Shown here piece by piece: positions 29,279 to 44,790 of a stretch of DNA of 64,000 bases (positions are counted from its first letter, which is position 1; every line of letters begins with the position of its first letter). The notes beneath the pieces are model-generated. The model was not told where the DNA came from. It worked only from the letters and a program-made list of their open reading frames with translations, and made no database searches. The position numbers and the translations under genes were made by a program. The stretch is from Elusimicrobiota bacterium (GTDB lineage Bacteria; Elusimicrobiota; Elusimicrobia; UBA1565; UBA9628), in contig DAHVNA010000004.1 of assembly GCA_027319565.1 (NCBI GenBank), forward strand, positions 25,522 to 89,521. The letters are read 5' to 3'.

Positions 29279-30739
29279 TTGAATAACAAAACGCCTATCA
29301 CCATCGCCTACGGAGACGGAGTCGGCCCGGAAATTATGGAGGCCACTCTTCGAATACTAGAGGCTGCCGGAGCGCTCCTTGAACCGGAGCGAATTCAGAT
29401 CGGAAAGGAAGTTTATTCGCGGGGTTTTTCCGCGGGCATCGAGCCTTCTGCCTGGGAGTCTTTGCGGCGCACGAGGATTTTTCTTAAAGCTCCCATTATG
29501 ACACCGCAAGGCGGAGGCTTTAAAAGTCTCAACGTGACCATTCGTAAGACCCTGGGCTTGTATGCCAATGTGCGCCCTTGCGCGGCGTACGCGCCGTTTG
29601 TCAGCACCCGGCATCCGCTAATGGATGTGGTGATAATTCGCGAAAACGAGGAGGACCTTTACGCAGGCATTGAGCACAGACAGACCGACGAGGTGATTCA
29701 ATGCCTGAAGCTCATCACGCGGCCGGGCTGCGAGAGAATTATACGATACGCCTTTGAATATGCGAGTTCCCATCATCGCTCGAAGGTGACCTGCATGACC
29801 AAGGACAACATAATGAAACTTACCGATGGATTGTTTCACGAAGTGTTCGGGGAAATCGCGGCGCAATATCCCGCCATCAAGAGCGAGCATATGATTGTGG
29901 ATATCGGCGCGGCGCGGCTGGCTGATTCTCCCGAGCAGTTCGATGTCTTGGTTCTTCCAAACCTCTACGGCGACATTCTCTCGGACATCGCCGCCCAGAT
30001 ATCGGGCTCCGTGGGACTGGCGCCGTCGAGCAACATCGGCGAGAATGGAGCGATGTATGAAGCGATTCATGGATCGGCGCCGGACATTGCGGGGCGGGAC
30101 CTTGCCAATCCTTCCGGACTATTGCTTTCTTCCGTGATGATGTTGGTTGATATCGGGCAACCGAAGGTCGCGGAGCGCATTCATAACGCGTGGTTGAAAA
30201 CCATTGAGGATGGAGTTCATACCGGGGATATGTTTACCGAAGGCCTAAGCGTTTGTCGAGTCGGCACGCGCGACTTTACCAACGCAGTCATTGAGCGGCT
30301 GGGAGCGCTTCCCGAAAGACTCAAGGTTGCGAATTATTCAACCTTCGCCCCCTCCCGTTCCGCGCTCGCGGGAAAAAAATGGGAACGTCAAGCGCCGCTG
30401 CGGAAAGATTTAGTAGGAGTGGACGTGTTTGTTCACTGGCGCAATGGCGCCCCGAACGATCTTGGAAAACTCCTGAACCAGGCGAGTAACGACGCCTTGA
30501 AACTCATCATGATCACCAATCGCGGGGTGAAGGTCTGGCCGGATGGGTTTCCGGAGACTTTCTGCACCGATCATTGGCGATGCAGATTTGTTTCTCCGCA
30601 AAATGGGAAGAGCATCTCTCATCGTGATATCATCGGCCTGCTTGAGCGAGTCGAAAAGAGCGGACTAGATTTCATCAAAACTGAGAATTTGTGTAATTTC
30701 GACGGCAAGCCTGGCTATTCATTGGGTCAAGGCCAATGA
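29279..30739 (+). CDS. icd: NADP-dependent isocitrate dehydrogenase (long type with C-terminal extension)
   Basis: GDGVGPEI, KSLNVTIRK, IRENEEDLY, PNLYGDILSD, EAIHGSAPDIAG, ends GYSLGQGQ; AAAGGAGG RBS, TTG start. Confidence 0.96.
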   Translation: MNNKTPITIAYGDGVGPEIMEATLRILEAAGALLEPERIQIGKEVYSRGFSAGIEPSAWESLRRTRIFLKAPIMTPQGGGFKSLNVTIRKTLGLYANVRPCAAYAPFVSTRHPLMDVVIIRENEEDLYAGIEHRQTDEVIQCLKLITRPGCERIIRYAFEYASSHHRSKVTCMTKDNIMKLTDGLFHEVFGEIAAQYPAIKSEHMIVDIGAARLADSPEQFDVLVLPNLYGDILSDIAAQISGSVGLAPSSNIGENGAMYEAIHGSAPDIAGRDLANPSGLLLSSVMMLVDIGQPKVAERIHNAWLKTIEDGVHTGDMFTEGLSVCRVGTRDFTNAVIERLGALPERLKVANYSTFAPSRSALAGKKWERQAPLRKDLVGVDVFVHWRNGAPNDLGKLLNQASNDALKLIMITNRGVKVWPDGFPETFCTDHWRCRFVSPQNGKSISHRDIIGLLERVEKSGLDFIKTENLCNFDGKPGYSLGQGQ

Positions 30740-31599
30740 GAGAAAAAATCGGTCCTTATAATAAGCGAACCATTGCGCTCGCGACGAAACATCAAAAGCA
30801 GGAGGCGATAGCTCCCTCTTTCCAGCGGATCCTTGGAGCGTCCATCACAGTTCCGAAGGGAATTGATACCGACTTGTTCGGAACTTTTTCCGGTGAAATT
30901 GAGCGTGAGGGAACGATGTTGGAAACCGCTAGAAAGAAGGCGAGGTTGGCGATTAAAGTCAGCGGACTGCCCTTTGGGCTCGCTAGCGAAGGCAGCTTTG
31001 GGCCAGACCCTTCCTGTCCTCTTTTCCCGTGTGGAATAGAGTTGATTGTTTTTATTGATGACGAAAGAAAGATCGAAGTTGTGGAAAGTGACTTGACTGA
31101 AGAAACAAATTTCAGTTCCATAACGGCCGTTTCGGCCCGAGAGATCCATGATTTCTTGGAACACGTGCGTTTTCCTTCTCATCGCCTTGTTGTGTCGCCT
31201 GAGGGTAAAATGGATTTGAGTCTTTTGAAAAAAGGGATCGGTCGATTTTCTGAACTTGAGGAAGCTATTCAGGCCGCCGCTCGCGGATCTCCGACGGGAA
31301 AGGCGCTCATTGTGGCGGATATGCGCGCTCATATGAATCCGACTCGTATGGTTTGTCTCGAAAAATTGGCGGAAAAACTCGCTCGGCGTTTGGCTTCGCC
31401 CTGTCCCGTTTGCGGGGCTCCGGGGTGGGGGAGTGTCGGCGTTATCAAAGGGCTTCCCTGCGAGTCTTGCGGCTCTGAGACAGAACTCGTCGTCCAAGAA
31501 ATTTATGGCTGCGCCTCTTGCGCAACTCGCGAGAGTAAACCGCGTGGTGATGGGAAGATGTTCGCGGATCCAGGCGAATGCCCGCGATGCAACCCTTGA
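30736..31599 (+). CDS. Conserved protein with C-terminal Cys-rich zinc ribbons (DUF6671-like)
   Basis: ATKHQKQEAIAP, DTDLFGTFSGEIER, ASEGSFGP, DMRAHMNPTRM, four CxxC pairs; family name recalled, not searched. Confidence 0.75.
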   Translation: MREKIGPYNKRTIALATKHQKQEAIAPSFQRILGASITVPKGIDTDLFGTFSGEIEREGTMLETARKKARLAIKVSGLPFGLASEGSFGPDPSCPLFPCGIELIVFIDDERKIEVVESDLTEETNFSSITAVSAREIHDFLEHVRFPSHRLVVSPEGKMDLSLLKKGIGRFSELEEAIQAAARGSPTGKALIVADMRAHMNPTRMVCLEKLAEKLARRLASPCPVCGAPGWGSVGVIKGLPCESCGSETELVVQEIYGCASCATRESKPRGDGKMFADPGECPRCNP

Positions 31600-32579
31600 G
31601 TCCGGGGGCGATCATCCGCGCTGACGCCCGGAACATCCGGCGCGCGGCGGATATCCTGCGCGCTGGCGGGCTTGTCGCGTTTCCGACCGAAACCGTTTAT
31701 GGCCTTGGCGCGAGCGCTTTGGACAGCGCGGCCGTTCGCCGGATTTATCATGCTAAGGGCCGTCCCTCTGACAACCCGCTCATCGTTCATGTTGATGGCG
31801 AAGATATGCTTGCGCTTGTTGCCCGCCGCGTGCCGCCGCTTGCGCGGCGTCTGATCGCCGCATTTTGGCCAGGGCCGCTAACGCTTGTGCTTGAGAAGGC
31901 TGAGCGCGTTCCTCTATCCGTTACCGCTGGGTGCCGAACCGTCGCCGTGCGTTGCCCCTCTCACCCGGTCGCGCGGGCGTTGATTCACGCGCTTGGAGAG
32001 CCCATAGCCGCTCCCTCGGCCAATCGATCGGGGCGCCCCAGTCCGACAACCGCCGCGCATGTCGCCAACGATTTAGGTCAAAGAGTGGCCCTGATACTTG
32101 ATGGCGGGCCGTGTCGCTTTGGCCTTGAGTCTACGATCATCGATGCACGAGGTCAAAGTCCAGTCTTATTGCGTCCGGGAGCGTTGTCGCCTGAAGGAAT
32201 CTCGCGCATTGCCAATGCTCCCTTGGTTTCCTGTGGCCGCGCGGCTCCGCCTTCGCCCGGAACACGCCATCGTCACTACGCGCCATTGTGCCACGTCAAG
32301 CTCGTCTCTCCCTCAGCCGTGCGCTCCGGTCTTATCCCGGGTTTGGGGCCACGAGACGGCTTGCTTCACTATTCACGCTGGGGCGGTTTGCGCCCAGCTT
32401 TCCTTCCGGCCTTTGTGCAGCGCGTGTCGGCGGGTCCCGCGGCCTATGCGCGCGGCCTTTTCGCCGCTTTGCGCGCCGCAGAAAAGGCGGAAGTTCAAAC
32501 GCTGTTTGTCGAGACCTTGCCCGAGCGAGGCATTGGTCGCGCGATTATGGATCGATTGCGCCGCGCGGCCGAACGCTGA
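31578..32579 (+). CDS. sua5: Threonylcarbamoyl-AMP synthase, Sua5 type (YrdC + Sua5 domains)
   Basis: VAFPTETVYGLGA, KGRPSDNPLIVH, FWPGPLT, APSANRSG, PGTRHRHYAP. Confidence 0.95.
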   Translation: MPAMQPLSPGAIIRADARNIRRAADILRAGGLVAFPTETVYGLGASALDSAAVRRIYHAKGRPSDNPLIVHVDGEDMLALVARRVPPLARRLIAAFWPGPLTLVLEKAERVPLSVTAGCRTVAVRCPSHPVARALIHALGEPIAAPSANRSGRPSPTTAAHVANDLGQRVALILDGGPCRFGLESTIIDARGQSPVLLRPGALSPEGISRIANAPLVSCGRAAPPSPGTRHRHYAPLCHVKLVSPSAVRSGLIPGLGPRDGLLHYSRWGGLRPAFLPAFVQRVSAGPAAYARGLFAALRAAEKAEVQTLFVETLPERGIGRAIMDRLRRAAER

Positions 32580-32637
32580 CGTTCTCTCAAGAAACTAGGC
32601 CAAAGTAAGTTTTGTGTTCTTAGAGATTCCTGGAATT

Positions 32638-33282
32638 TTATTGTCCATCAACATCCCGCCCATGCCATAGAAGATAGATCGCGGGATAGACGAGGAGTTC
32701 CAGGATAAATGAGGTGAAAAGACCGCCGACCATGGGGGCGGCGATTCGCTTCATGACGTCTGCGCCCGTTCCGGTCGACCACATGGCCGGAAGAAGTCCC
32801 AGAAACGCGCAAGCGACCGTCATCATTTTTGGGCGCAGACGCTTGGCCGCGCCGTCATGAATCGCTTCTTTAAGATCGGCTTGCGTGTTAAGACGTCCGG
32901 CGGCGGCGCGCGCTTGTTTTTCGAGATTGAGATAGAGAAGCATGAAAATGCCCGTTTCGGCGTCAAGCCCTAAAAGAGCGATAAACCCTACCCAGACCGC
33001 GACGGAGAGATGATATCCCAAGAGCCACAACAGCCAAATCGCTCCGACTGCCGAGAACGGCACCGCGACTAAGACGATTCCCGCTTCAATCCAGGAGCCT
33101 GTGTTAAAGTAGAGAAGCAATACGATCAGCAAAAGAGCGAGCGGGCCGATGATGAGGAGCCTTTTCTCGGCTTTTTTCATCTGTTTATACTGTCCGCTCA
33201 ATTCATAACGATAGCCCGAAGGAAAAGTGACCGATTTCGCAATGGCCGCCTTGGCCTTTTGGACGTAACCCCCGATATCGGA
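32638..33282 (-). pseudogene. 645-bp near-identical duplicate of the cusA 3' portion (matches 34269-34910), lacking the 5' part
   Basis: Colinear with the full cusA, mostly synonymous differences; homology ends exactly at the 27-bp repeat. Confidence 0.92.
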
Positions 33283-33314
33283 CGAATTCCAGGGACAGCA
33301 TACTTAATTTAAAT
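33283..33314 (+). repeat. Direct repeat copy 2; a degenerate third copy lies at 33374-33399
   Basis: cgaattccagggacagcatacttaatttaaat; aatttcggggacagacttaattcaaa. Confidence 0.9.
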
Positions 33315-33389
33315 TCAGATCCCAGGCCCCATAAGATCGGCAATGTCGAGATGAAAATCCCGATGGATGCCACAATTTCGGGGACAGAC

Positions 33390-33518
33390 TTAATTCAAAA
33401 AATCGGATGAATTAATGATCCCCTGATCCCCATAGGTCACGGTCTTGGCGCGAAGCGTGCCAGCTGACATAAGAACGCAAGAGAGAGCGCTTAAAAATAT
33501 TTTTCGTTTCATTTTCAT
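33390..33518 (-). pseudogene. Truncated secreted-protein gene (signal peptide only; possibly a multicopper oxidase N-terminus)
   Basis: GGAG RBS; MKMKRKIFLSALSCVLMSAGTLRAKTVTY then runs into repeat sequence and stops. Confidence 0.5.
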
Positions 33519-33542
33519 GATTTATTCTCCGGTTCAAAATAT

Positions 33543-33971
33543 CTACATGTCCTTAAAAACCTGGGCGCCGCCGAGGCTTCCTTGATAAATCAAGAGCGCG
33601 ACCAGGAGCAATCCTAAAAAAAGATAGCCTGCGGCGGGCCGCCGGTTTCGTTTATAGAAATACGCGCGCCAAAGGGCTAGGGCAGGCACCAGCAGAGCGA
33701 GCGAGGTTCCAAGCCACTTGTGGATCATCATCCCCTGCACGCCCACGTCGTCCTTCATCCAAAAGAGCCAGCCTGTCAGCGCGGTCAAAGGCGTCACGGC
33801 GGCGACGTAGAGCATCGTCCACCAGCCGACTTCATTGAAAGATTTCCGCCCCGACCATCTTTCCAGAAAGTCGCTGCCGATGGAAACCGGAACCAAGGCC
33901 GTCGTGAAATTGACCAGGATCGGATGAATCTTATACTGCATGACCAGATGAGCCAGCATGATTTTTAACAC
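33543..33971 (-). CDS. DUF2231-like membrane protein (copper-cluster associated)
   Basis: IHPILVNF, ALTGW, HKWLG, QGSLGG..VF; 4 TM helices; AAGGAGG RBS before GTG. Confidence 0.8.
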   Translation of the reverse strand: MLKIMLAHLVMQYKIHPILVNFTTALVPVSIGSDFLERWSGRKSFNEVGWWTMLYVAAVTPLTALTGWLFWMKDDVGVQGMMIHKWLGTSLALLVPALALWRAYFYKRNRRPAAGYLFLGLLLVALLIYQGSLGGAQVFKDM

Positions 33972-34069
33972 TATTTTTCCTCCTTATGGTAGCGCCACTT
34001 CCAGACGGTGTAGATGGCAGGGTAGCTCAGAAGCTCCATGATGAAGAAAATGAAGTTGCCGAGAGTCAT
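33971..34069 (-). pseudogene. Divergent cusA C-terminal remnant (32-codon mini-ORF)
   Basis: MTLGNFIFFIMELLSYPAIYTVWKWRYHKEEK*; its TAG overlaps the GTG start of the DUF2231-like gene. Confidence 0.75.
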
Positions 34070-34083
34070 TGATGATCCGCTCA

Positions 34084-34216
34084 CATCACTCCGGCAATCC
34101 CTAAGCCGGAGTCCAGACTCTCAGAAAGCCTACCACTGGCCGCTCCCCAACAGACTTTGGAAGCGGCATTTCCTCGGCTTATGCCTCGGTCAGATTCCGG
34201 CGTTCGCCGGAATGAC
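34084..34216. repeat. Paired REP-like palindromes (actccggc..gccggagt and attccggc-gttc-gccggaatgac) enclosing a ~55-bp hairpin repeat
   Basis: Palindromes at ~34088-34112 and 34194-34213; inner 34137-34194 resembles 37491-37545. Confidence 0.7.
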
Positions 34217-34268
34217 GAACCTGAGCAGTTACTTTTCGCGAACAAAATATTTCCCTTGACTTGCGGTG

Positions 34269-37200
34269 CTAATTCCCAATATCCCGCCCATGCCACAAAA
34301 GATAAATCGCGGGATAGACGAGAAGCTCCAAGATAAATGAGGTGAAAAGTCCGCCGACCATGGGGGCGGCGATTCTTTTCATGACGTCTGCGCCCGTTCC
34401 GGTCGACCACATGGCCGGAAGAAGTCCCAGAAACGCGCAAGCGACCGTCATCATTTTTGGGCGCAGACGCTTGGCCGCGCCGTCATGGATCGCTTCTTTA
34501 AGGTCGGCTTGTGTGTTAAGACGCCCAGCGGCGGCGCGCGCTTTTTTTGCGAGATTGAGATAGAGAAGCATGAAGATGCCGGTTTCGGCATCAAGTCCTA
34601 AAAGAGCGATAAATCCCACCCAAACCGCGACGGAGAGGTGATATCCCAAAATCCACAACAGCCAAATCGCGCCGACGGCCGAGAACGGCACCGCGACTAA
34701 GACGATTCCGGCTTCAATCCAGGAGCCGGTGTTAAAATAAAGAAGCAATACGATCAGAAAAAGAGCGAGCGGGCCGACGACGAGAAGTCTTTTCTCGGCT
34801 TTTTTCATCTGTTTATACTGTCCGCTAAATTCATAACGATAGCCCGAAGGAAAAGTGACCGATTTCGCAATGGCCGCCTTGGCCTTTTGGACGTAACCCC
34901 CGATATCGGAAGTTTTTAAGTCCACATAGACATATCCTGAGAGTTCGCCGTTTTCATCTCGAATCATGTCAGGTCCCTGGCGTATGCGAATTTCAGCGAT
35001 CTCGGCCAATGGAATCTGCTCGTCTTTGGAAACGGGGACCAAAACTTCTCCGATTTTTCTCAAACTGTCTTTAAAGTCCGGGGCATAGCGCACGTTCACC
35101 GGAAAACGATCGCGGCCTTCGATGGTCTTCGTCACGCGCTCGCCTCCTAAGGCGGCGGCGATCATCGAATTTGCGTCATCAACTGAAAGCCCGTATCTCG
35201 CCAAAGCCCGGCGCTTTAAAATGATGTCGGTGTAATAGCCCTGGGCGGTCCTTTCCGCCACGGCGCGCCTAGTTCCAGGCACGGAATTAAGAGCTCCTTC
35301 GATTTCAGCTCCGAGTTTTTGAATCACGGATAAATTCGGGCCGAAAATTTTAATTCCAACGGGCGTTCGCATTCCGGTTGAGAGCATATCGATGCGATTT
35401 TGTATGGGCTGGGTCCAGATATTGGGATAGCCCGGGATCTTAAGCTTCTGATTCATTTGAGAGATCAGCTGCCTCTGACTCAAATGGCATTTCCAGAGTC
35501 CGCCGAGACAAGGCGTTGTCGGCCAAAATTTTCGGGGTTTTAAAACGACGGTCGTTTCCATCATGGACAAGGGTGCGGGATCGGTCGCGGTTTCGGCGCG
35601 GCCAGCCTTGCCGTAAACGGTTTTAACTTCAGGGAAAGATTTGAGGATTTCGTCTTGAATTTGAAGGACCCTCCGGGCTTCCGTTATCGAGACTCCGGGA
35701 AGAGTGGTCGGCATGTAAAGGATGGTTCCCTCGTTGAGCGGAGGCATAAACTCAGATCCCAAGCGCCATAAAAGAGGCAGAGTCAAAAGGAAAAGCGCGG
35801 CGGCCGAGAAAATCGTTCGGCGCGGATTTTCCAAGACCCAGTTGACCACCGGCGAATAAATTTTAAAAAGCCGGCGGCTGATGGGGTGTTTCTCTTCCGG
35901 ATAATAGCGTCCGACTAAAATGGCGTCGGCGGCGCGGTTAAGCCAATGCGGCTTAATATTAAATGAGTCCATTCGCGCAAAAAACATTCGGACTGCGGGG
36001 TCTAGGGTCACGGCTAAGACCGCGGCAAGCGTCATCGCGAAAGTTTTTGAATAGGCGAGAGGCTTAAATAACCGGCCTTCTTGCCCGGTAAGAGCGAAAA
36101 TCGGAAGAAATGCGGCTGCGATAACGAGAAGCGAGAAAAAAACCGAAGGGCCGACTTCCATTAAAGCTTTGAGGCGCACCTCATGAAAATCTCCCTTGCG
36201 TCCCTCTTCTTGCCACTCCTCAAGACGCTTGTAGGCATTTTCGACCTCGACAATCGCGCCGTCAACGAGAATTCCAATTGAGATCGCGATGCCGGAAAGA
36301 GACATGATGTTGGTGGTCAGGCCCAAAGCCGCCATCGGGATAAAAGCCAAAAAAACGGAAACCGGAATTGTCAGAATCGGAACCATGGCCGACGGCGGGT
36401 GCCATAAAAAAAGAAGGATCACGAGACTGACGATGAGCATTTCTTCAAAGAGCGTTTCTTTGAGCGTTCCGACGGCTCGTTTGATAAGACCCGATCGGTC
36501 ATAGACCGGGATGATGCGAACTCCGGGCGGCAAAGAGGGAGAAATCTCTTTTATTTTTTCTTTGACGCGGTTGATCACATTGAGCGCATTTTCTCCGCTG
36601 CGAATGATGACGATTCCGCTGACGGCGTCGCCAAGGCCGTTGAATTCCCCGACGCCTCGCCTTCGAGCGGGTCCCAGGCTGACTGTGGCGATATCTTGAA
36701 CCAAAACAGGCGTTCCCGTTTCAGGGTCTCGTCCGACAGAAGTTTGCTCGATGTCTTTGATTCCTTTGAGATAACCGCGCCCTAAAATCATGAATTCTCT
36801 TCCCGAAAACTCGATCGTGCCGCCGCCCGCTTCGCTGTTGGATTCTGAAACGGCTTTGAGAACCTTGGTCAGCGAAATGTGATAGCTCCAGAGAGCGCTG
36901 GGATTTATTTTGACCTGATACTCTTTTTCATATCCGCCGATGGACGCCACTTCAGAGACGCCAGGAACGGCTTGAAGCTGATAGCGAATGTGCCAGTCTT
37001 GAAGGGCGCGGAGTTGAGATAAATCCAGCGCTTTTGAATCATCCACCAGCACGTACTGATAGACCCAACCAAGACTGGTCGCGTCCGGTCCCATTGCGGT
37101 TTTCACTCCTTTGGGAAGCTCCGGAATGATTTTGGATAGGTACTCTAAAACGCGCGAACGCGCCCAATAGAGGTCGGTTCCGTCCTCAAAAATTACGTAA

Positions 37201-37475
37201 ACTAAAGACACCCCGAATTCATTGATCGCGCGAATCGCCTTAACTTTAGGCGCGCCCAAAAGAGCCGAGACGATCGGATAAGTCACCTGGTCTTCCAATA
37301 CTTCGGGCGATTGATCCCAGTTTGAGGAGACGATTACCTGAGTGTCCGATAAATCCGGTATCGCGTCGAGCGGCATTCTTTTGACCGTGTAAAAGGCGTA
37401 GGCCAAGGCCACGAGAGTCAAAAGAATAACGAGAAATTTATTGCGCGCCGAAAACGAAATGATTTTAGAGATCAT
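34269..37475 (-). CDS. cusA: CusA/CzcA-family heavy-metal RND permease (Cu/Ag type)
   Basis: DAIPDLSDTQVIV, GPDATSLGWVYQY, GRLFKPLA, EFMPPLNEG, TDPAPLSMMET, RLRPKMMT. Confidence 0.97.
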   Translation of the reverse strand: MISKIISFSARNKFLVILLTLVALAYAFYTVKRMPLDAIPDLSDTQVIVSSNWDQSPEVLEDQVTYPIVSALLGAPKVKAIRAINEFGVSLVYVIFEDGTDLYWARSRVLEYLSKIIPELPKGVKTAMGPDATSLGWVYQYVLVDDSKALDLSQLRALQDWHIRYQLQAVPGVSEVASIGGYEKEYQVKINPSALWSYHISLTKVLKAVSESNSEAGGGTIEFSGREFMILGRGYLKGIKDIEQTSVGRDPETGTPVLVQDIATVSLGPARRRGVGEFNGLGDAVSGIVIIRSGENALNVINRVKEKIKEISPSLPPGVRIIPVYDRSGLIKRAVGTLKETLFEEMLIVSLVILLFLWHPPSAMVPILTIPVSVFLAFIPMAALGLTTNIMSLSGIAISIGILVDGAIVEVENAYKRLEEWQEEGRKGDFHEVRLKALMEVGPSVFFSLLVIAAAFLPIFALTGQEGRLFKPLAYSKTFAMTLAAVLAVTLDPAVRMFFARMDSFNIKPHWLNRAADAILVGRYYPEEKHPISRRLFKIYSPVVNWVLENPRRTIFSAAALFLLTLPLLWRLGSEFMPPLNEGTILYMPTTLPGVSITEARRVLQIQDEILKSFPEVKTVYGKAGRAETATDPAPLSMMETTVVLKPRKFWPTTPCLGGLWKCHLSQRQLISQMNQKLKIPGYPNIWTQPIQNRIDMLSTGMRTPVGIKIFGPNLSVIQKLGAEIEGALNSVPGTRRAVAERTAQGYYTDIILKRRALARYGLSVDDANSMIAAALGGERVTKTIEGRDRFPVNVRYAPDFKDSLRKIGEVLVPVSKDEQIPLAEIAEIRIRQGPDMIRDENGELSGYVYVDLKTSDIGGYVQKAKAAIAKSVTFPSGYRYEFSGQYKQMKKAEKRLLVVGPLALFLIVLLLYFNTGSWIEAGIVLVAVPFSAVGAIWLLWILGYHLSVAVWVGFIALLGLDAETGIFMLLYLNLAKKARAAAGRLNTQADLKEAIHDGAAKRLRPKMMTVACAFLGLLPAMWSTGTGADVMKRIAAPMVGGLFTSFILELLVYPAIYLLWHGRDIGN

Positions 37476-37490
37476 AGTTTGATTCCTCTG

Positions 37491-37545
37491 TGGCCGCTCT
37501 CCAACAGACTTGGAAGCGGCACTTCCTCGCCCATGCTCGGTCGGA
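37491..37545. repeat. ~55-bp hairpin repeat; second copy at 34137-34194, so the two copies flank cusA in direct orientation
   Basis: tggccgctctccaacagacttggaagcggcacttcctcg versus tggccgctccccaacagactttggaagcggcatttcctcg. Confidence 0.85.
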
Positions 37546-37573
37546 ACATTCTTGCGGCTTTTGCCGTATCAAA
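37543..37573 (+). promoter_or_regulatory. Putative ECF-sigma promoter for the tRNA-like gene
   Basis: GGAAC (37543-37547) - 17 nt - CGTATCAAA (37565). Confidence 0.4.
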
Positions 37574-37580
37574 GGTGTAG

Positions 37581-37654
37581 GCCTCGCTAGCTCAACTGGA
37601 TAGAGCGCACCGCTGACTACGGGGGAGATTCGGGTTCGAATCCCGAGCGGGGCA
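37581..37654 (+). tRNA. Atypical tRNA-like gene, anticodon GAC (Val) by geometry, Arg-like D loop; A28.G42 mismatch, U37, no encoded CCA
   Basis: Acceptor GCCTCGC/GCGGGGC, D arm GCTC-AACTGGATA-GAGC, anticodon arm CACCG-CTGACTA-CGGGG, T arm TCGGG-TTCGAAT-CCCGA; U8, A14, G18G19 and A15:U48 intact. Confidence 0.75.
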
Positions 37655-37715
37655 TATGCCGGTTTCCGGCGGATAGCGACTTTCCCTCCAAAGTCAGCGG
37701 TCGTTGTCCATCCCC

Positions 37716-37745
37716 TTGACAAACATGCATAAGAGGGCTTACAAT
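37716..37745 (+). promoter_or_regulatory. Sigma70-type promoter for the small RNA
   Basis: TTGACA (37716-37721) - 18 nt - TACAAT (37740-37745). Confidence 0.75.
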
Positions 37746-37751
37746 AAAGCG

Positions 37752-37828
37752 TAGGCGGTGTGCTCCGAGTTAGCGGAGTCTTCCCCGTAGTCAAAGCGGC
37801 GTCCACAAAGGCGCCGCTTTCTTTTTTT
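37752..37828 (+). ncRNA. Putative ~77-nt small RNA antisense to the tRNA-like RNA
   Basis: Bounded by its own promoter and terminator; three segments complementary to 37584-37593, 37603-37613 and 37614-37628. Confidence 0.7.
37793..37828 (+). terminator. Intrinsic terminator
   Basis: aaagcggcgtc-cacaaa-ggcgccgcttt followed by cttttttt. Confidence 0.85.
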
Positions 37829-37850
37829 CCAGGGGTGCGGTTGATTTTTA

Positions 37851-38978
37851 TCACATCTTCATCCCGGGCATGGAGCCCATTGAATCCGAGGGAGCGGCGT
37901 TTTTGGAGTCTTTGCCCGGTTGAGCGAATGATTGGATCGCGGATTGAAATTGAGATTCCGCGTCGATTAAAAAATTAGCCGAAGTCGTTACCGTTTCTCC
38001 GGGACTTAAACCCGATAAAATTTCGTAATAGCCCCCGGCTTTTGTTCCTAACTGGATTGATCTCGGATCAAGAGTCCCGTCTTCCCTAGCCACAAAAACG
38101 TATTGTTTCTCCCCGGTGTTTAAAACCGCGCCTTCCGGCACGCTCAAATGCTCTCCCAGCGGAGATTGAATTGTGACATCCACATAGGTTCCGGGTTTGA
38201 GCAGTCCCAAGGCATCATCCAGCCGGGCTCTGACGCGCGCGGTTCGAGTGGTGGGGTTGATCACTGGATCTATTGAAAGGACATTTGTCGTCCAGACTTT
38301 TCCCGGGAGAGTTTGGGATTTAATCTTCACGGGAATTCCCGGATGAATGAATTGCAGGTCATATTCATAAACATCCGCATAGACCCATACCGCCTGTCCG
38401 CGTTTTCCCACTAAAAGCCCTTGAGCGAGACTCGGATTCTTGACCCAGGCGGAAACCTGAGCGGGAGACAAACCTAAGAGTTTGAGTTTGAAGGCCGATG
38501 CTTTTTCCATGGAGCGCGCCCAATTCGCTTCGGAATTTTGAGAGCTTTTTTTGACTGAGTTCAAGGCTTCAAGGGCTTGGCGGTATTCTTCGATTGCCTC
38601 ATAGAGTTGCGGGTCATAAGCGATGCGGCCGGGAGCGCGGATATTTTTTGTGAGCGCCCGCATTTCGGACTTTCCATAGGTGACGCCGATTAATTGCCGC
38701 CTTTGAGAGGAGATTAAGATGGGGGCTCTCTCGGGCACATTGCTGTTGCCTTTTTTCATTTTCTCCATCGGTCGTAAATTCATGCCGCAGATGGGGCACT
38801 GGCCCGGATGATTTCGAATAATCTGATGGTGCATCGGGCATTGGTAGAGAGTTTTTGGGGCGGCCTTTTTTGAAGAGGCGGCAATCTCAATTGAAGCGTT
38901 GCGGCTTTTGAAGTAAATGCCGGCGATAACGGCGAGGAAAAGAGATATCGCGAAAAAGAATAATTTTTTTTGTTTCAT
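37851..38978 (-). CDS. cusB: CusB-like RND periplasmic adaptor with heavy-metal-binding domain
   Basis: YQCPMH...PGQCPICGM, IDPVINPTTRTARVR, ANFLIDAES, Met-rich tail. Confidence 0.93.
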   Translation of the reverse strand: MKQKKLFFFAISLFLAVIAGIYFKSRNASIEIAASSKKAAPKTLYQCPMHHQIIRNHPGQCPICGMNLRPMEKMKKGNSNVPERAPILISSQRRQLIGVTYGKSEMRALTKNIRAPGRIAYDPQLYEAIEEYRQALEALNSVKKSSQNSEANWARSMEKASAFKLKLLGLSPAQVSAWVKNPSLAQGLLVGKRGQAVWVYADVYEYDLQFIHPGIPVKIKSQTLPGKVWTTNVLSIDPVINPTTRTARVRARLDDALGLLKPGTYVDVTIQSPLGEHLSVPEGAVLNTGEKQYVFVAREDGTLDPRSIQLGTKAGGYYEILSGLSPGETVTTSANFLIDAESQFQSAIQSFAQPGKDSKNAAPSDSMGSMPGMKM

Positions 38979-40216
38979 GGGTTTGTCGCTCCTTTTTTGA
39001 AAACGGGGAGCGGGCCGCCGATGGCGCGCTCCAGTTTCGCTAAATGCTCGCCGTAAAGCTCTACTTCCTCTGGATATTTGAGTTGGGCGTCTAAAAGAGA
39101 CCTCACGTCTTCGGAAAGTTTTGCGAAATCCGTTCGGCCCGTTTCATAGCCTTTCTCCGCGATTTTGAGGGCGCCGTTTGCCAGAGGGATAATCTCGTGT
39201 TCATAACTGAGCGCTAAATCTCGGTGCAAGTTGACTTCGATGAACTCCGAATGGATTTGACGAAGGATCTCATTTTGCGCATCTTCTGAAGCCGCTTCAG
39301 CCTCTTGTTTATGGGCCTTGGCGGCTTTAAGCAAAGATTCCTGCTTCCAAAACCAGAGCGGGATCGTGAGATTGACCCCGTAAACGCTTTCCTGCATCGT
39401 CGCGACGTAGGGCCGCGCTTCTTGTGTCGCCGAAAACTGGAAATCCGGCGCAAAGCCGAGGCGATTGAATGCCACCATCGCTTTTGCGTGCATGATTTCA
39501 TGAAGAGCCAATAGATAATCGGGGCTTATCTTCTCCGCGATCGCGTCCAGTTCTTGGGGGGTGTAGTCAATGGCGTTGGGGTCAGAGGGATTTAAAAGAT
39601 CCCATTGAGTTCCTGCGGGTTTGGCCAAAAGCGCGTTTAAAGATTCTTCCTCAACTAATGATTCCTGTTCGCGTTCAAAAGCGGCATTTTTAATTTGGAT
39701 TTCTGAGGCTTGAGCGGAGAGGGCTTCATCTGTCGTCGCGCGTCCGGAGGCGACCGATGCTTGGGCGACTTGGGCGATTTCTCGCAAAATATCGGCGTCT
39801 TTTCTAAGGACGGAGCTTGTTTCTTTCAAGAAAGAAACCCGGTAATACTCAATTGCGACTCTTGACGCAATATCAAGACCCATGGCGCGATATTGTTGGT
39901 AAGCGATCATCGCCTCATGATGTTTCATTTTGGCGCTTTGAGAGAGCTTTCCCGGAAACGGCACGTTTTGCTCAATAGACCAGTAGTCCGCGCTTTGGCC
40001 GCCTTGGAAATTCATGCGCTGAAAACCAATCAGGGGGTCTTCCCATGTCGCCGCCGCCGGCACCTGGGCCATCAATGATTTCCAATGTTCCTTGGCCTTA
40101 AGTATGGCGGGATTATTTTTGAGCGCGATCTCAATGAGAGAATTAAGATCCCGCCGCGGAATCTGGCTTGCGCGGGCCGAAGAGACTGAAAACAGCAAAA
40201 TTAAAATTTTAAACAT
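38975..40216 (-). CDS. TolC/CusC-family outer-membrane efflux protein
   Basis: ALKNNPAI, EQNVPFPGKL, NLTIPLW, YETGRTDF, LERAIG; first gene of cusCBA. Confidence 0.93.
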   Translation of the reverse strand: MFKILILLFSVSSARASQIPRRDLNSLIEIALKNNPAILKAKEHWKSLMAQVPAAATWEDPLIGFQRMNFQGGQSADYWSIEQNVPFPGKLSQSAKMKHHEAMIAYQQYRAMGLDIASRVAIEYYRVSFLKETSSVLRKDADILREIAQVAQASVASGRATTDEALSAQASEIQIKNAAFEREQESLVEEESLNALLAKPAGTQWDLLNPSDPNAIDYTPQELDAIAEKISPDYLLALHEIMHAKAMVAFNRLGFAPDFQFSATQEARPYVATMQESVYGVNLTIPLWFWKQESLLKAAKAHKQEAEAASEDAQNEILRQIHSEFIEVNLHRDLALSYEHEIIPLANGALKIAEKGYETGRTDFAKLSEDVRSLLDAQLKYPEEVELYGEHLAKLERAIGGPLPVFKKGATNP

Positions 40217-40273
40217 TTTTCTCCTAGTTAAGAATTAAAAATACGAATCAGACAAACGACAGGCGGCCGACTT

Positions 40274-40630
40274 CTAGGCCAGGGGCGGGGAACGTCCGAG
40301 AGAGAGGAAATGTCCAGGCGGGGAATGTGTCAAGGGACGCCGAGACAAGGTTAAAAAAACAAAAGATTGGGGGGGTGTTGTAATCGGAGAGATCAAAATC
40401 GGATTCATTTTGTGCGGGCGCGGAGACTGCGCGGAAATGCGAAAGAGAGAGGTCTTCTGAATATGGCAGGTTTTGGCGTTGTGGCAGGGTTTTGAGGGGC
40501 AGGATTTGGCCGCGCAACAGGGCATTACGTCACAGCGGGGTAATGCGCGAGGGATAAGGGCCGCGATGAGAAAAAAAGCGCTTAAGCCGCGCAAAACGCC
40601 TTGCCAAAGCCGAGTTTTCATAAAAGCCAT
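40274..40630 (-). CDS. Small Cys/His-rich exported uORF ending in RSPP (DUF2946/CruR/CutF-like)
   Basis: Signal-like N-terminus, CDVMPCCAAKSCPSKPCHNAKTCH, C-terminal GRSPPLA; directly upstream of cusC. Confidence 0.7.
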   Translation of the reverse strand: MAFMKTRLWQGVLRGLSAFFLIAALIPRALPRCDVMPCCAAKSCPSKPCHNAKTCHIQKTSLFRISAQSPRPHKMNPILISPITTPPQSFVFLTLSRRPLTHSPPGHFLSLGRSPPLA

Positions 40631-40670
40631 CTCTTAAATTATAGCAGGCCGCCGAAAAATTTGCAAGGGA

Positions 40671-40692
40671 AAAAACGGAGAGGGTGAGATTC
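40671..40692 (-). repeat. Duplicate of the tRNA-Ser 3' end (att-like direct repeat)
   Basis: aaaaacggagagggtgagattc versus aaaaacggagagggtgggattc at 40794-40815 (21/22). Confidence 0.85.
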
Positions 40693-40798
40693 CTCCTCAT
40701 CCGGCCTACGCTTCGCTTTGGCCTCCCTCGGAGCCTGCTGCATCCGCAAACCAAATCGTTGGTTTGTGTCTGTCAGCTTCGAATCTTTCCTATAAAAA

Positions 40799-40885
40799 CG
40801 GAGAGGGTGGGATTCGAACCCACGAGGGGCGTGAACCCCTACCGGTTTTCAAGACCGGCGCCTTAAACCGCTCGGCCACCTCTCC
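40799..40885 (-). tRNA. tRNA-Ser(TGA)
   Basis: GGAGAGGTGGCCGAGCGGTTTAAGGCG CCGGT-CTTGAAA-ACCGG, long variable arm, GTGGG-TTCGAAT-CCCAC, G73; CCA not encoded. Confidence 0.97.
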
Positions 40886-40915
40886 AAATTCAATTAATTA
40901 TTATAGCAGGCTTGG

Positions 40916-41851
40916 TTAGGCTGGAATCTTGTGGAATTGTTTCTTCCAGATTTCAAGTTGATTGAGGCTGACTCCGACGCCGCCACAGACGATGGCGAGA
41001 AGAGATGAAAATTCCTTAAGAATGGGCGCGTTGTGATAAAGAGGCGCCAGCGCCGCCCCGCAGGCGGGCTCAACGAGGACGCGGTGATCATCGGCGAATT
41101 TAAGACAGGCCTCCACCGTGTCGCCATCGGAGACGACCTCGTCGATGACGCGGTGTTTGTGTGTCCAGTTTAAAGCCTCGGGAGTTATGATTTTGGTTCC
41201 AAGGCTGGTGGCGATGGTTTGAACTTTATCTAGCGAGACCAGTTTCCCGGCTTCCAGCGAAGCCTTGAGCGTGGCCGCTCCTTTGACCTCGCAGGCGATG
41301 ACGGGAATATCTTTCATTCCATGTTTGTGAAGACCTTGGAGAATTCCGCAGAGAAGCCCGCCTCCGCCGACCGCAACCGCGATCGCTCCCGGTTTAATTC
41401 CTTCTTTAACGATTTCATCGATGAGACTTGCGTGGCCTTCCCAGATGAGAGGATTATCAAAGGGATGAACATAGCCTACCTTGGGGTCTTGCGCCAAACG
41501 CGAGGCCTCTTGATGCGCGTCATCCCAAACCTTTCCGAAAACTCGAACCTCGGCTCCTTCCAGCGCGATTCTCTCTCTCATCATGGCCGGAGTTGTTTCC
41601 GGGACGATGACGGTCGTCTTGATTCCCAACCTTCGTCCGGCATATGCGGCGGCAAGGCCCGCGTTTCCACCGGAGGATGAGACAAAGCGCGTTTTTCCCA
41701 TTTTCGCGAGTTCTTCGCAAAGGTGTCCAATTCCGCGAATTTTAAAGGAACCCGAAGGCTGCAGCGCGTCCATCTTGAGATAGACCGGCTTATTGACGAT
41801 GCGGCTGATGGGAAGAGACTCAAGAAGAGGCGTGTCAATGTGAAGCGGCAT
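40916..41851 (-). CDS. PLP-dependent L-serine/threonine dehydratase (fold type II)
   Basis: QPSGSFKIRG, SSGGNAG, VGGGGLLCG, VEPACGAAL. Confidence 0.9.
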   Translation of the reverse strand: MPLHIDTPLLESLPISRIVNKPVYLKMDALQPSGSFKIRGIGHLCEELAKMGKTRFVSSSGGNAGLAAAYAGRRLGIKTTVIVPETTPAMMRERIALEGAEVRVFGKVWDDAHQEASRLAQDPKVGYVHPFDNPLIWEGHASLIDEIVKEGIKPGAIAVAVGGGGLLCGILQGLHKHGMKDIPVIACEVKGAATLKASLEAGKLVSLDKVQTIATSLGTKIITPEALNWTHKHRVIDEVVSDGDTVEACLKFADDHRVLVEPACGAALAPLYHNAPILKEFSSLLAIVCGGVGVSLNQLEIWKKQFHKIPA

Positions 41852-42392
41852 TTAAATTCTCCTTATTGCTGCGAATCTTGTTTGAATTTCCAAATTTTTC
41901 AACGATCTTTAAGCGCGAATTCCGGCTTGATTTAAGATGGCAAAGGGCTATTGCGGCGGCATCGGCGACATCGGCGGGGTGAAGGGTTTCTTTGAGGCCT
42001 AGCGCCCGCTGAACGGCCCATTGCATTTGAGATTTAATCGCTGTTCCGCTACCGGTCAGAGTCAATTTAACCGCGCGCGGATTGTATTCTTTGATTGGTT
42101 TTTTGGCTAAAGCCGCGGCCAGTAAAATGACCCCGCGGGCCTGAAGAGTCGCCCTCACGGTCGGGGCCGCCTTTAAAAAAAACATCTCTTCGATGGCGAC
42201 GGCATCCGGCGCGTGTTCTCTAATGACGCGTTTGACTTCATTGTGGATGTAAACGAGGCGTTCCGTTAATACCTGCGTGGGAAATGTCCGGATAAGACCG
42301 GAGGCGATGAGTTGGGGGACAGGGGCTCCGCCTTCATTTAAGACCGCCCATCCGGTCTCGGAAACGCCGGGATCTATCCCTAAGGTGATCAT
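41835..42392 (-). CDS. ruvC: Holliday junction resolvase
   Basis: LGIDPG, AIEEMFF, QARGVI, TGSG.A.K.Q, DVADAAAIALCH. Confidence 0.96.
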   Translation of the reverse strand: MITLGIDPGVSETGWAVLNEGGAPVPQLIASGLIRTFPTQVLTERLVYIHNEVKRVIREHAPDAVAIEEMFFLKAAPTVRATLQARGVILLAAALAKKPIKEYNPRAVKLTLTGSGTAIKSQMQWAVQRALGLKETLHPADVADAAAIALCHLKSSRNSRLKIVEKFGNSNKIRSNKENLNAASH

Positions 42393-43147
42393 CAGGCTTC
42401 AAGTTTCGCTAATATCTCATCCGGGATGTCGAAATTAGCGTGGACATTTTTGACGTCATCATGCTCTTCTAAAGCGTCAATGAGAGCCAAAACTTTTTCG
42501 GCCGTCGCCTGGTCCAAGGTGATGGTGTTGTCTGGCTTCATGATGGAAGACGCCGATTCGACTTCATATCCCGCCTTGAGCAAGGCTTCTTTCGCTTTAT
42601 CGGTATTGAGAGGTGTCGTGATCACTTCGAAAAATTCGGAATCATCGGTCGCGATATCCTCAGCGCCCGCGTCAAGGGCCTGAGACATGAAAGCGTCCTC
42701 GTCTTTGACCGAGCTTTTTTTGACGCGGATAAGGCCTTGGGGCTTGAACATCCAGGCGACGCAGCCCGCCTCGCCCTTGTTCCCGCCATTTTTAGTGAAA
42801 ATCGTCGCAATCTCCGAACCGGTGCGGTTGCGGTTGTCGGTCGTCACTTCAACTAGAATTGCGATGCCGCCGGGGCCGTAGCCCTCATAGGTTAACTCTT
42901 CATATGTCGCTCCGGGAATTTCGCCGGTCCCTTTTTGAATGGCGCGTTTGATGGTGTCTAAAGGCATATTGGCCGCGCGTCCATCGTCAATCGCCTTGCG
43001 CAGCCTGGGGTTTCCGGCCGGATCCCCGCCTCCCATCTTTGCCGCAATCGTGATTTCGCGGCTGATTTTAGTCCAAACTTTTCCGCGCTTGGCGTCGATG
43101 AGCGCCTTTTTGTGTTTAATTCCCGCCCAGTGAGAGTGTCCGCCCAT
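42392..43147 (-). CDS. yebC: YebC/PmpR-family protein
   Basis: MGGHSHWAGIKHKK, YEGYGPGG, TDNRNRT, DDVKNVHAN. Confidence 0.97.
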   Translation of the reverse strand: MGGHSHWAGIKHKKALIDAKRGKVWTKISREITIAAKMGGGDPAGNPRLRKAIDDGRAANMPLDTIKRAIQKGTGEIPGATYEELTYEGYGPGGIAILVEVTTDNRNRTGSEIATIFTKNGGNKGEAGCVAWMFKPQGLIRVKKSSVKDEDAFMSQALDAGAEDIATDDSEFFEVITTPLNTDKAKEALLKAGYEVESASSIMKPDNTITLDQATAEKVLALIDALEEHDDVKNVHANFDIPDEILAKLEA

Positions 43148-43264
43148 AAAGCCTCCAGAGAAATTTCAGCGGAGTCAATTGAGACCCGCCTTTATCCATT
43201 TTAGCACATCGCGGGAGGCGTTTTAGGGCATTGCTTTGAGACATTTAGGTATAATAGGTTCATT

Positions 43265-44782
43265 ATGTGGAAAAATCTTTTCGCCGCAAAGCCTCTTTCC
43301 CTGATTATGGAGGAAATGAACACGGGTAAGCGCTTGAGCCGGGTGTTGGGGCCTTGGCAATTGGCCGGGATCGGAATCGGCGGAATCATCGGCACCGGAA
43401 TTTTTGTCTTGACCGGAGTCGCGGCGCATGACAAGGCGGGGCCGGCTCTTATTCTCTCCTTTGTTTTTGCCGGAATCGCCTGCATTTTCGCCGCCCTTTG
43501 CTACGCGGAGTTTGCGGCGATGGTCCCCGTTGCGGGTTCGGCCTACACCTACGCTTACGCGACACTAGGCGAGCTGTTCGCCTGGATTATCGGCTGGGAT
43601 TTGATTTTGGAATACACCGTGGCCTCCGCCGCCGTCGCTCATGGATGGTCTCATTATTTCCAGGACTTCATCAGTATTTTTGGGCTCTCGATTCCGCATG
43701 CTTTGACAAACGCGCCGTTCGATTTTAGCCCGACCTTGGGCCGCCTTTTGCCGACGGGCACGGTCTGCGATTTTCCCGCCATCGTCATCACCTTCATCAT
43801 CATGGGGATTTTGATCGTCGGCGTCAAGGAAAGCGCCTCTTTTAACGCCTCGATGGTGTTTACGAAACTTGTGGTGGTCCTTTTTGTCATCTGCGTGGGG
43901 GCTCTTTATGTCAAGCCTCACAATTGGATTCCCTTTGCCCCCTATGGATACACGGGGATCAGCTTTTTTGGAAAAACGATTCTGGGACAAACGGGCGCGA
44001 GTGGAGAGCCCTTGGGAGTTTTTGCCGGGGCCGCGATGATTTTTTTCGCTTATATCGGCTTTGACGCGGTCTCAACCCAAGCCGAGGAGGCGATCAACCC
44101 GCAAAAAAGCGTTCCCTTCGGAATCATCACGTCTTTGATCGTCTGCACGGTTCTTTACATCGCGGTGACGGCGGTCTTGACTGGAATGATCCCATACAAA
44201 CAAATCAATATCGACGCTCCGATTTCGGAAGCCTTTAAGCAGGTGGGGCTTCCCTGGGCTCAGGGGATTATCGCCTTGGGCGCCTTGGCTGGGATCACTT
44301 CCGTTTTGCTTGTCATGATGCTCAGCCAGCCGCGCGTGTTTTTGGCGATGGCTCGCGACGGGCTTTTGCCGAGAAAGTTTTTCGCGGCGATCCATGACAA
44401 ATTCCACACTCCTTATAAAGCGACGATTTTGACCGGCATCGTCGTGGCGGTGATGTCGGCCTTGATTCCGCTCCGCATTTTGGCCGAACTCGTCAATATC
44501 GGAACGTTGCTCGCTTTCGTCATCGTTTGCGCCGCAGTCCTCATCATGCGAAAAACCCATCCTCACGCTGCGCGCCCGTTTTTATGCCCCCTTGTTCCCG
44601 CCGTTCCTATTTTGGGAATCGCCTTTTGCCTTCTCCTGATGTTTTCTCTCCCGGCGGAGAATTGGTGGCGGTTAATTATTTGGCTCCTCATTGGACTAGT
44701 GATCTATTTCTTCTACAGCCGCCACAATAGCGTCTTGGCCGAGGAAAGGCGTAGAATCGCCGAGCGTCCGGATCCCGCATAA
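43265..44782 (+). CDS. APC-family amino acid permease (cationic amino acid transporter-like)
   Basis: IIGTGIFVLTG, GSAYTYAY, FFAYIGFDAVST, MARDGLLP. Confidence 0.95.
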   Translation: MWKNLFAAKPLSLIMEEMNTGKRLSRVLGPWQLAGIGIGGIIGTGIFVLTGVAAHDKAGPALILSFVFAGIACIFAALCYAEFAAMVPVAGSAYTYAYATLGELFAWIIGWDLILEYTVASAAVAHGWSHYFQDFISIFGLSIPHALTNAPFDFSPTLGRLLPTGTVCDFPAIVITFIIMGILIVGVKESASFNASMVFTKLVVVLFVICVGALYVKPHNWIPFAPYGYTGISFFGKTILGQTGASGEPLGVFAGAAMIFFAYIGFDAVSTQAEEAINPQKSVPFGIITSLIVCTVLYIAVTAVLTGMIPYKQINIDAPISEAFKQVGLPWAQGIIALGALAGITSVLLVMMLSQPRVFLAMARDGLLPRKFFAAIHDKFHTPYKATILTGIVVAVMSALIPLRILAELVNIGTLLAFVIVCAAVLIMRKTHPHAARPFLCPLVPAVPILGIAFCLLLMFSLPAENWWRLIIWLLIGLVIYFFYSRHNSVLAEERRRIAERPDPA

Positions 44783-44790
44783 CTTTGCCG

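Follow-up and report, generated by a model that had tools for sequence, protein, structure and literature searches.

A tRNA with an arginine-type body and a valine anticodon and its co-varying antisense RNA: a predicted RNA-only toxin-antitoxin-like module in an Elusimicrobiota bacterium

The window analyzed here, a stretch of 64,000 nucleotides from an Elusimicrobiota bacterium (source genome G000, 91.65% complete), carries an odd tRNA gene that is accompanied by a gene for a small complementary RNA. Comparison of related loci strongly supports the view that the tRNA and the adjacent antisense RNA are under selection to base-pair. The whole unit spans about 290 nt and consists of an ECF-type promoter, the tRNA, a 3' trailer, a sigma70 promoter and a terminated antisense RNA of about 75 nt. 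We consider it probable that this unit is an RNA-only, toxin-antitoxin-like module, in which a stress-induced mistranslating tRNA would place arginine at GUC and GUU codons and would be kept in check by the antisense RNA. By a small preponderance we also favor a wider reading, namely that such modules make up a widespread class with a mischarged tRNA as toxin and a co-evolving antisense RNA as antidote, and with ArgRS reading the anticodon loop out of register. Members of this predicted class would insert Arg in place of Val, Ala or Ser, Asn in place of Asp and Gln in place of Glu, and would be spread over several phyla of bacteria, with further cases on some viral contigs and in one archaeal record, all annotated as ordinary tRNAs. 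A first-pass annotation of the same DNA had recognized the odd tRNA, but neither the ECF-type promoter and the fold-back trailer nor the antisense RNA with its own promoter; the family across phyla and the mistranslation reading were likewise missed.

A tRNA with conflicting identity elements

The tRNA-like gene, the predicted effector or toxin of the module, occupies positions 37581-37654 of the + strand; it is 74 nt long, adopts a 7/5 cloverleaf with the anticodon GAC and encodes no CCA. ARAGORN labels it tRNA-Val(GAC), and the Rfam tRNA model gives 48.8 bits at the same position (gathering score 29). The first-pass annotation had described an intact tertiary core (U8, A14, A15:U48, G18G19 and TTCGAAT) in combination with A20, GAC, U37, an A28.G42 mismatch in the anticodon arm and the residues A35, C36 and A73, and the sequence confirms every one of these features, with A20 at 37600, the anticodon at 37615-37617 and U37 at 37618. 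To these we add a U4.G69 wobble and a C3-G70 pair in the acceptor stem, neither of which had been mentioned.

Canonical tRNA-Val(GAC) has a purine at position 37, and A20 alone is able to direct arginine to a suppressor tRNA. The gene agrees with the valine features in A35, C36 and A73, and has C3-G70, U4.G69, A20 and U37 in place of G3-C70, U4-A69, G20 and a purine at 37. Of the arginine features it shows A20, C3-G70 and an A/G at position 73; in place of an Arg anticodon with in-register C35 and U/G36 it has A35 and C36, with C-U at 36-37. A35, C36 and A73 are determinants for ValRS, the pair used by ArgRS is C35-(U/G)36, and valylation is impaired by a G.U pair at position 3 or 4 (PMC9976931; papers are cited here and below for their openly readable text). 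Charging by ValRS appears disfavored because of C3-G70, U4.G69 and A20. The earlier suggestion of an Arg-like body (A20, C3-G70, A73) under a Val anticodon (GAC) is thus supported, as is the conclusion that the tRNA is surplus to the normal set and purposeful rather than decayed.

The tRNA complement of G000 comprises 45 calls, among them a canonical tRNA-Val(GAC) with A37 on contig C58, a tRNA-Val(TAC) and five tRNA-Arg (GCG, CCG, TCG, TCT and CCT). The separate tRNA-Val(GAC) that the first-pass annotation had proposed to look for is therefore present, and tRNA-Arg(ACG), the other counterpart it had named, was not found among the tRNAs of this 91.65%-complete genome; CGY codons are apparently served by tRNA-Arg(GCG) at C42:16407-16481, not by ACG. 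A paralogue of the odd tRNA lies on contig C43. Among Val codons, the genome uses GUC and GUU most often, with about 24 and 20 per 1000 in a rough count. Two outcomes had been named beforehand as speaking against the first-pass reading, an ordinary tRNA-Val that is the sole GAC tRNA of its genome and random decay among homologues, and we observed neither. It had further pointed to a string resembling tRNA-Arg(ACG), shifted 4 nt out of register: the 9-mer TGACTACGG is indeed found there, but it is not kept in the aligned relatives, and for this reason we regard it as a coincidence and rejected the shifted string as the key to the odd tRNA.

The antisense RNA and the other parts of the module

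The antisense RNA (37751-37828, +; inverted repeat I25) is a predicted antitoxin of about 75 nt with a presumed 5' end, and it is complementary to the tRNA in three blocks. Positions 37755-37765 pair with tRNA positions 22-32, the hairpin loop at 37767-37774 pairs with 6-13 and positions 37776-37793 pair with 33-50. In the window this amounts to 37 nt of pairing, 33 Watson-Crick and four G.U, with zero mismatches, and the co-fold of both RNAs reaches -72.9 compared with -32.2 and -32.5 for the single molecules. When ranked against all 45 tRNAs of G000, the antisense RNA of the window has the 37581-37654 tRNA as its top target (-45.2, next -39.9) and that of the C43 copy the C43 tRNA (-51.4, next -48.9). 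A downstream complement of more than 11 nt is found for two of the 45 tRNAs, which are the two odd ones (16 and 14 nt).

In an alignment of nine modules, one row of which (G056) is misaligned and was retained, 87.7% of 277 cells are paired, compared with 80.0% in shuffles and 35-48% for slid partners. Changes on both sides were seen in 16 of 31 tRNA-antisense pairs (7.8 in shuffles, with 0 of 500 reaching the observed value), figures that do not represent a probability because the structure derives from the sequence of the window itself and the rows share ancestry. The compensating changes in tRNA and antisense RNA are visible row by row. The asymmetry between G.U and A.C pairs was null in the ECF-selected set described below (12:14) and modest elsewhere (23:10, p=0.035), and a stricter post-hoc version (4:0 and 5:1) was not significant. 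The first-pass judgment that random decay is unlikely is borne out by the co-varying antisense partner and its cognate specificity.

A putative sigma70-type promoter for the antisense RNA is located at 37716-37745 (+; TTGACA-18-TACAAT, 11/12 match). Taken alone this site is weak, because one such site compares with a mean of 0.6 in shuffles, and a downstream promoter by itself is not enriched in the broader set (56/295 downstream, 53/291 upstream). A sigma70-like site is present at the corresponding place in 37 of the 40 ECF-selected modules. The intrinsic terminator (37793-37828, +) has an 11-bp stem and a U-run and is kept in the paralogue and in relatives, and no protein gene is encoded on the + strand between the tRNA and this terminator. 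At gathering score, Rfam finds the tRNA and nothing else around the module, so that the antisense RNA matches no family there; matches to STnc240 and suhB are driven by the terminator, lie far under the cut-off and were rejected. A T-box riboswitch was also dismissed, as the 11 Rfam matches obtained for 37400-37900 up to E 10 include none. Three RNA contig sets contained nothing on 37400-37900, which speaks neither for nor against expression.

Between both genes lies the 3' trailer, whose hairpin (37671-37709, +) has an 11-bp stem and a 17-nt loop. Comparison of the sequences reveals that the loop and its flanks are complementary to the anticodon arm, and we predict that the hairpin acts as a cis lock on the precursor. 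Folding of the precursor with the trailer invading the anticodon arm gives -60.4 kcal/mol, compared with -50.1 for the forced cloverleaf. The trailer next to the 37581-37654 tRNA ranks first of 40 for this tRNA, and the cognate trailer is within the top three in 12 of the 21 modules that have trailers; in many modules the hairpin is missing.

The putative promoter of the tRNA (37543-37568, +) combines a -35 element GGAAC (37543-37547) and a -10 element CGTA (37565-37568) with a 17-nt spacer, a motif that we take to be of the ECF-sigma type. GGAAC-N17-CGTA with a variable spacer sequence precedes eight listed Elusimicrobia modules and is missing upstream of the modules L024, L174 and L176; in the C43 copy the promoter region is cut by the contig end. 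The extended motif occurs in G000 with spacers of 16 nt (four sites), 17 nt (nine), 18 nt (two) and 19 nt (one), and with none of 12-15 or 20-23 nt. A spacer of 16-18 is described for ECF promoters, in a text that does not support GGAAC/CGT itself (bioRxiv 10.1101/2020.06.23.168245). Nine sigma70 region-2 matches were found in G000, seven of them of ECF size. At one locus (L434, G000:C30:4655-7855) an ECF sigma gene is followed by a zinc-finger anti-sigma-like gene and GGAAC-N16-CGTA lies just upstream, which makes this sigma factor a candidate for the cognate ECF of the module promoter. Further GGAAC-N17-CGTA sites of G000 (contigs C31, C46, C23, C26 and C18; L476-L484) precede two phage integrases and a RhuM-family gene, as well as DNA methylases, a Spy/CpxP-like gene and a histidine kinase. 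These sites could belong to one ECF regulon that mobile genes have in common.

Distribution and turnover of related modules

Pattern scans returned at least 121 and at least 120 genome loci, at least 21 and at least 120 viral loci and at least 119 metagenome loci, the first A20 pattern being one N longer and its loci representing members whose anticodon arm has one additional base. With position 35 as the only restriction, the 129 different A20 bodies listed include the anticodons GAC (75), AAC (12), TAC and TGC (6 each) and CAC, GGC and AGC (5 each). The first-pass annotation had treated U37 and the stem flaw as damage. Among the matches listed, position 37 of the 182 NAC members is U in 93, G in 64, A in 21 and C in 4, and with U or G in 157 of 182 the idea of damage is not supported. 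The recurring C36-(U/G)37 would correspond to the ArgRS pair C35-(U/G)36 moved by one position. In the 79 antisense-positive A20 tRNAs among the matches listed, a sample in which C36 was partly forced and a few rows are probably due to chance, the pair is shifted by +1 in 55, by -1 in 7, both ways in 2 and in register in 7; the remaining 8 have no C-(G/U) in any register, which argues against a slipped register. Seven A20 modules (L207, L214, L225, L254, L290, L301 and L106) have a CGC or CGT anticodon with C-G at 34-35, i.e., the -1 register, and several of these come from Acidobacteriota records.

For A20 tRNAs with NRC, U/G37 and both flanks, again among the matches listed, a complement of at least 12 nt was found in 116 of 175 cases, compared with 18 of 175 decoys. 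The layouts were divergent upstream (53), tandem (50), convergent (14) and upstream on the same strand (4). No complement of at least 12 nt within 250 nt was found for the other 59, of which at least L006 and L022 have split 11-nt blocks. The upstream control of the target ranking gave rank 1 in 48 of 175, which could be traced to real divergent antisense genes. Among the 49 loci selected by the downstream promoter alone that remained after seven of 56 were set aside for lying too near to the end of their locus, the antisense RNA had its cognate tRNA as top target in 28 and within the top three in 33.

Without a constraint on the D loop, GGAYA was seen in 56 of 76 GAC+U37 tRNAs among the matches listed, and an antisense RNA accompanied 40 of the 48 GGAYA members with full flanks versus 1 of 19 others, this one having A20 as well. 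A group of GAC+U37 tRNAs with G20 (L501, L502, L504, L507 and others) lacks the antisense RNA and looks apparently normal in spite of breaking the purine-37 rule; these are probably true Val tRNAs. Because of this group, U37 alone is not diagnostic. A separate GAC candidate with A37 is present in five of five other carrier genomes.

According to the record titles, antisense-bearing loci belong to Actinomycetota, Chloroflexota, Acidobacteriota, Eremiobacterota and Ignavibacteria, with one Pacearchaeota. Solirubrobacterales loci contain an odd tRNA and antisense pair of the same kind, and Actinobacteria bacterium IMCC25003 (L104) is a carrier with the divergent layout. In the Pacearchaeota record (L217), an A20/GAC tRNA is accompanied by an antisense RNA behind a TATA-like box. 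Viral loci are mostly without antisense (2/12 and 2/53 positive among the matches listed, the 53-locus set including many ordinary tRNA-Arg admitted by a looser filter). One viral contig (L160) has two tandem modules with CAC and AGC anticodons and an antisense RNA for each. The phage and plasmid record collections gave generic tRNA matches only (7 and 1 records), none of which spans the module.

A search for the ECF motif together with a T loop, ignoring the antisense RNA, yielded 42 tRNA-like genes, spread over 19 of the 101 genomes from the order, and the reversed control yielded 0. After one gene at a contig end was skipped and two identical copies were merged, 40 modules remained as the ECF-selected set. 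In 26 modules the tRNA and its own antisense RNA form the top-ranking pair of 40, and in 30 they are within the top three; counted for 37 loci, the cognate is best in 26. Of the remaining three modules, two have 16-17-nt complements and L468 has none. With four mis-parsed rows set by hand, the scaffolds are U1-A72 bodies with GUC (19), CUC (3), GUA (3) or GCC-like (3) anticodons, C1-G72 with GUC (2), nine A20 bodies (GAC in five, AAC, GGC, and GCU in two) and one degenerate case. Amidation by GatCAB depends on U1-A72 as its determinant and is prevented by G1-C72 and U20a (PMC9976931). In three of three genomes of the genus gatB was found and AsnRS did not exceed the cut-off, and a separate canonical tRNA-Asp is present in four of five. 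We infer from these identity rules that U1-A72 tRNAs with GUC decode Asp codons as Asn and those with CUC decode GAG as Gln. The Asp/Glu case does not depend on the Arg case and is our strongest argument for mischarging as the purpose. U1-A72 bodies with GUA (L456, L457 and L469) or GCC-like anticodons (L442, L455 and L464) likewise have a cognate antisense RNA, and the identity rules give no clear prediction of an amino acid for them. All predictable substitutions (Asp to Asn, Glu to Gln, and Val, Ala or Ser to Arg) push protein charge in the positive direction.

In the window the module lies in the gap between cusB and cusA, on the strand opposite to a cusCBA-type operon. Its left neighbor (34269-37475, -) is a cusA/czcA heavy-metal RND transporter (TIGR00914, 1047.6 bits, cut-off 701.45) and its right neighbor (37851-38978, -) a cusB-like adaptor with TIGR00999 and NF007303 matches under the cut-off. 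A duplicate of the 3' end of cusA lies at a distance of 1628 nt (32638-33283 versus 34269-34911, -; 94% over 300 nt, matching blocks to about 635 nt), and the duplicate encodes a C-terminal fragment of 187 aa. A multi-copy, REP-like intergenic repeat at 37492-37545 abuts the promoter. It is a hairpin of about 55 nt without an Rfam match, with about ten copies in G000 (a second one near 34138-34190) and further copies in many genomes of the order; it is missing at the cusB-cusA site of congeners with a module, and we do not count it as a part of the module.

Of the 401 genomes sampled from the phylum, 14 contain the A20/NRC pattern, and there are several module copies per genome. The content of the cusB-cusA gap changes from genome to genome: an Arg/GAC module in G000, U1-A72/GUC in G001 and U1-A72/CUC in G002; G003 has only an orphan CUC-type antisense RNA, G005 has half a terminator, and G004 is empty at this site. 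We reject a cus-specific regulation, because the site is empty in G004 and the neighbors vary. HicB-like genes are interspersed between the modules of G001 and G005 (one below and two above the Pfam cut-off), and an ORF beside a G001 module is presumably RelE-like. An identical 858-nt unit of module and HicB-like gene occurs in tandem in G005 (C11:39821-43717; L184 and L186), which may be a recent duplication or an assembly artefact. Patchiness, multiple copies, the changing content of one site, including an orphan antisense RNA, and HicB-like neighbors argue for a toxin-antitoxin-like behavior. The 67 ORFs around 20 modules are mostly metabolic, housekeeping or unassigned. Mobile or toxin-antitoxin genes are few among them, and besides a single integrase and a single methylase there are a few HTH or ORF6N genes, which argues against a location in defense islands in general. 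An integration-site remnant was rejected, since 30000-45000 contains no terminal repeats or tRNA 3' duplication; no integrase lies beside the module in the stretch of the window examined.

Proposed mechanism, alternatives and comparison with known systems

Induction, processing, charging, decoding, toxicity and neutralization are predicted steps of the following scheme. Under stress, an ECF sigma factor would transcribe the tRNA precursor, which the trailer would hold misfolded until 3' trimming and CCA addition. The mature tRNA would be arginylated through A20, C3-G70 and A73, with C36-U37 replacing C35-U36 one base off, and the ribosome would read GAC and insert Arg at GUC and GUU Val codons, with partial valylation being possible. 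The antisense RNA, made constitutively from its sigma70 promoter, would open the D and anticodon arms, neutralize the tRNA and thereby set a threshold, beyond which proteome-wide mistranslation would arrest growth. Sister modules would work in the same way, with Asp to Asn via GatCAB for U1-A72 and GUC, Glu to Gln for U1-A72 and CUC, and Ser to Arg for A20 and GCU. Mistranslating allo-tRNAs are able to arrest and kill E. coli (PMC5389517). The weakest link is charging by ArgRS without C35, for which we infer a slipped register, while A35, C36 and A73 invite ValRS; in addition, variants with U37 and C33 may decode poorly.

We weighed whether the same toxin-antitoxin logic could employ another poison, i.e., stalling or frameshifting at GUY codons or a decoy for ArgRS, ValRS or EF-Tu instead of Arg insertion. 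U37, occasional C33, bulges, mismatches and an extra anticodon-arm nucleotide are common in the family, an in-register C35 is missing, and some allo-tRNA(UAU) variants are toxic without decoding (PMC5389517). Against it, the family is confined to few anticodon classes, and U1-A72 with GUC or CUC are textbook substrates of two-step mischarging, which a pure decoy would not need. We consider such a poison unlikely and favor mistranslation, because the sister modules join U1-A72 bodies to Asp and Glu anticodons.

In another reading, the module would be a rheostat for beneficial mistranslation, in which low-level substitution is raised by stress and the antisense RNA sharpens the response, with neither arrest nor addiction. 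This would be in line with the ECF-type promoter, with the same motif upstream of an ECF gene that has a zinc-finger anti-sigma-like neighbor, with predictable changes that all remove negative or add positive charge, and with the increased carbenicillin resistance of E. coli with tRNA-ProX mistranslators (PMC10404621). Scaffold swaps at one site, orphan antisense RNAs, empty sites and patchiness, however, fit better to a selfish or dispensable toxic unit, and two layers of repression suggest danger, so that we judge a rheostat rather improbable. A non-translational RNA pair, with the tRNA shape as a stable scaffold in a self-moving cassette or in antisense control of the flanking operon, would explain why the cassette comes and goes at one gap, why it lies antisense within cusBA and why other ECF-type sites precede two integrases and a RhuM gene; it is quite improbable in view of the differing neighbors, the retained synthetase and GatCAB identity elements and the lack of terminal repeats, tRNA 3' duplication (both in 30000-45000) and an adjacent integrase in the stretch examined. 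A decayed or ordinary tRNA-Val beside a chance inverted repeat is highly improbable, although ARAGORN and Rfam score the gene as a tRNA(-Val) and some apparently normal Val(GAC) tRNAs have U37, since G000 has its canonical Val(GAC), five of five other carriers have an A37 GAC candidate, and covariation and cognate specificity refute chance.

If the mistranslating module is real, a tRNA would join the bacterial toxins, and cells or mobile DNA would toggle the genetic code by an antisense RNA. For natural tRNAs that mistranslate, role and control are described as open (PMC5389517, PMC10404621), and the module would supply a defined regulator; many annotations of "extra" Val, Ala, Asp and Glu tRNAs would be wrong. 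Even a harmless tRNA would leave a dedicated, co-varying RNA directed against a tRNA, a kind of regulatory device that we did not find in the literature searched.

Among known systems, tisB/istR-1 and hok/sok resemble the module in combining a stress-induced toxin transcript with a constitutive antisense RNA, an inert primary transcript and processing; the 3' fold-back of hok resembles the trailer, both have a two-layer control, and type I systems show tandem, convergent and divergent layouts as the module family does (PMC5668327). As in type I, the antisense RNA is encoded near its target, which is a tRNA and not a leader; concerning a small-protein toxin, two ORFs of 72 and 129 aa overlap the tRNA-antisense module. 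Unlike in tisB and hok, the repressed RNA is a tRNA and not the mRNA of a peptide toxin, and the inducer looks like an ECF factor and not LexA. The type VIII pairs CreTA and SdsR-RyeA, the only validated kinds in the accessible text on TADB 3.0, resemble the module in having two RNA partners from neighboring genes (PMC10767807), which are here two adjacent predicted RNA genes with their own promoter-like sites. Their toxins are not tRNAs and CreA works via CRISPR effectors (PMC10097628), whereas the antidote described here would pair directly with arms of the predicted toxin tRNA.

Allo-tRNAs likewise have a body that disagrees with the anticodon, cause missense and toxicity in E. coli and are found near toxin-antitoxin genes (PMC5389517, PMC7609411). 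They differ by an 8/4 or 9/3 acceptor branch and mostly Ser identity, compared with 7/5 and Arg or Asn/Gln-type bodies in the modules, and the word "antisense" has 0 occurrences in the main texts of both papers. tRNA-ProA and tRNA-ProX are natural bacterial tRNAs that are mis-annotated by their anticodon and mistranslate; they have a Pro body, ProA comes with ProRSx, and "antisense" and "toxin" have 0 occurrences each in the text consulted (PMC10404621). The tRNA of the window, in contrast, has an Arg-type body and cusB and cusA as neighbors, with no synthetase nearby. Searches of openly readable literature at the level of titles and the beginnings of abstracts showed no tRNA with a cognate antisense antitoxin, and the supplement of PMC5389517 on irregular tRNA polycistrons might bear on this point. 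Taken together, the module belongs to no named family, would act like type I and, if the tRNA is toxic, would be type VIII by definition; on the evidence available, the unit of a tRNA and its antisense RNA appears categorically new, with a predicted function.
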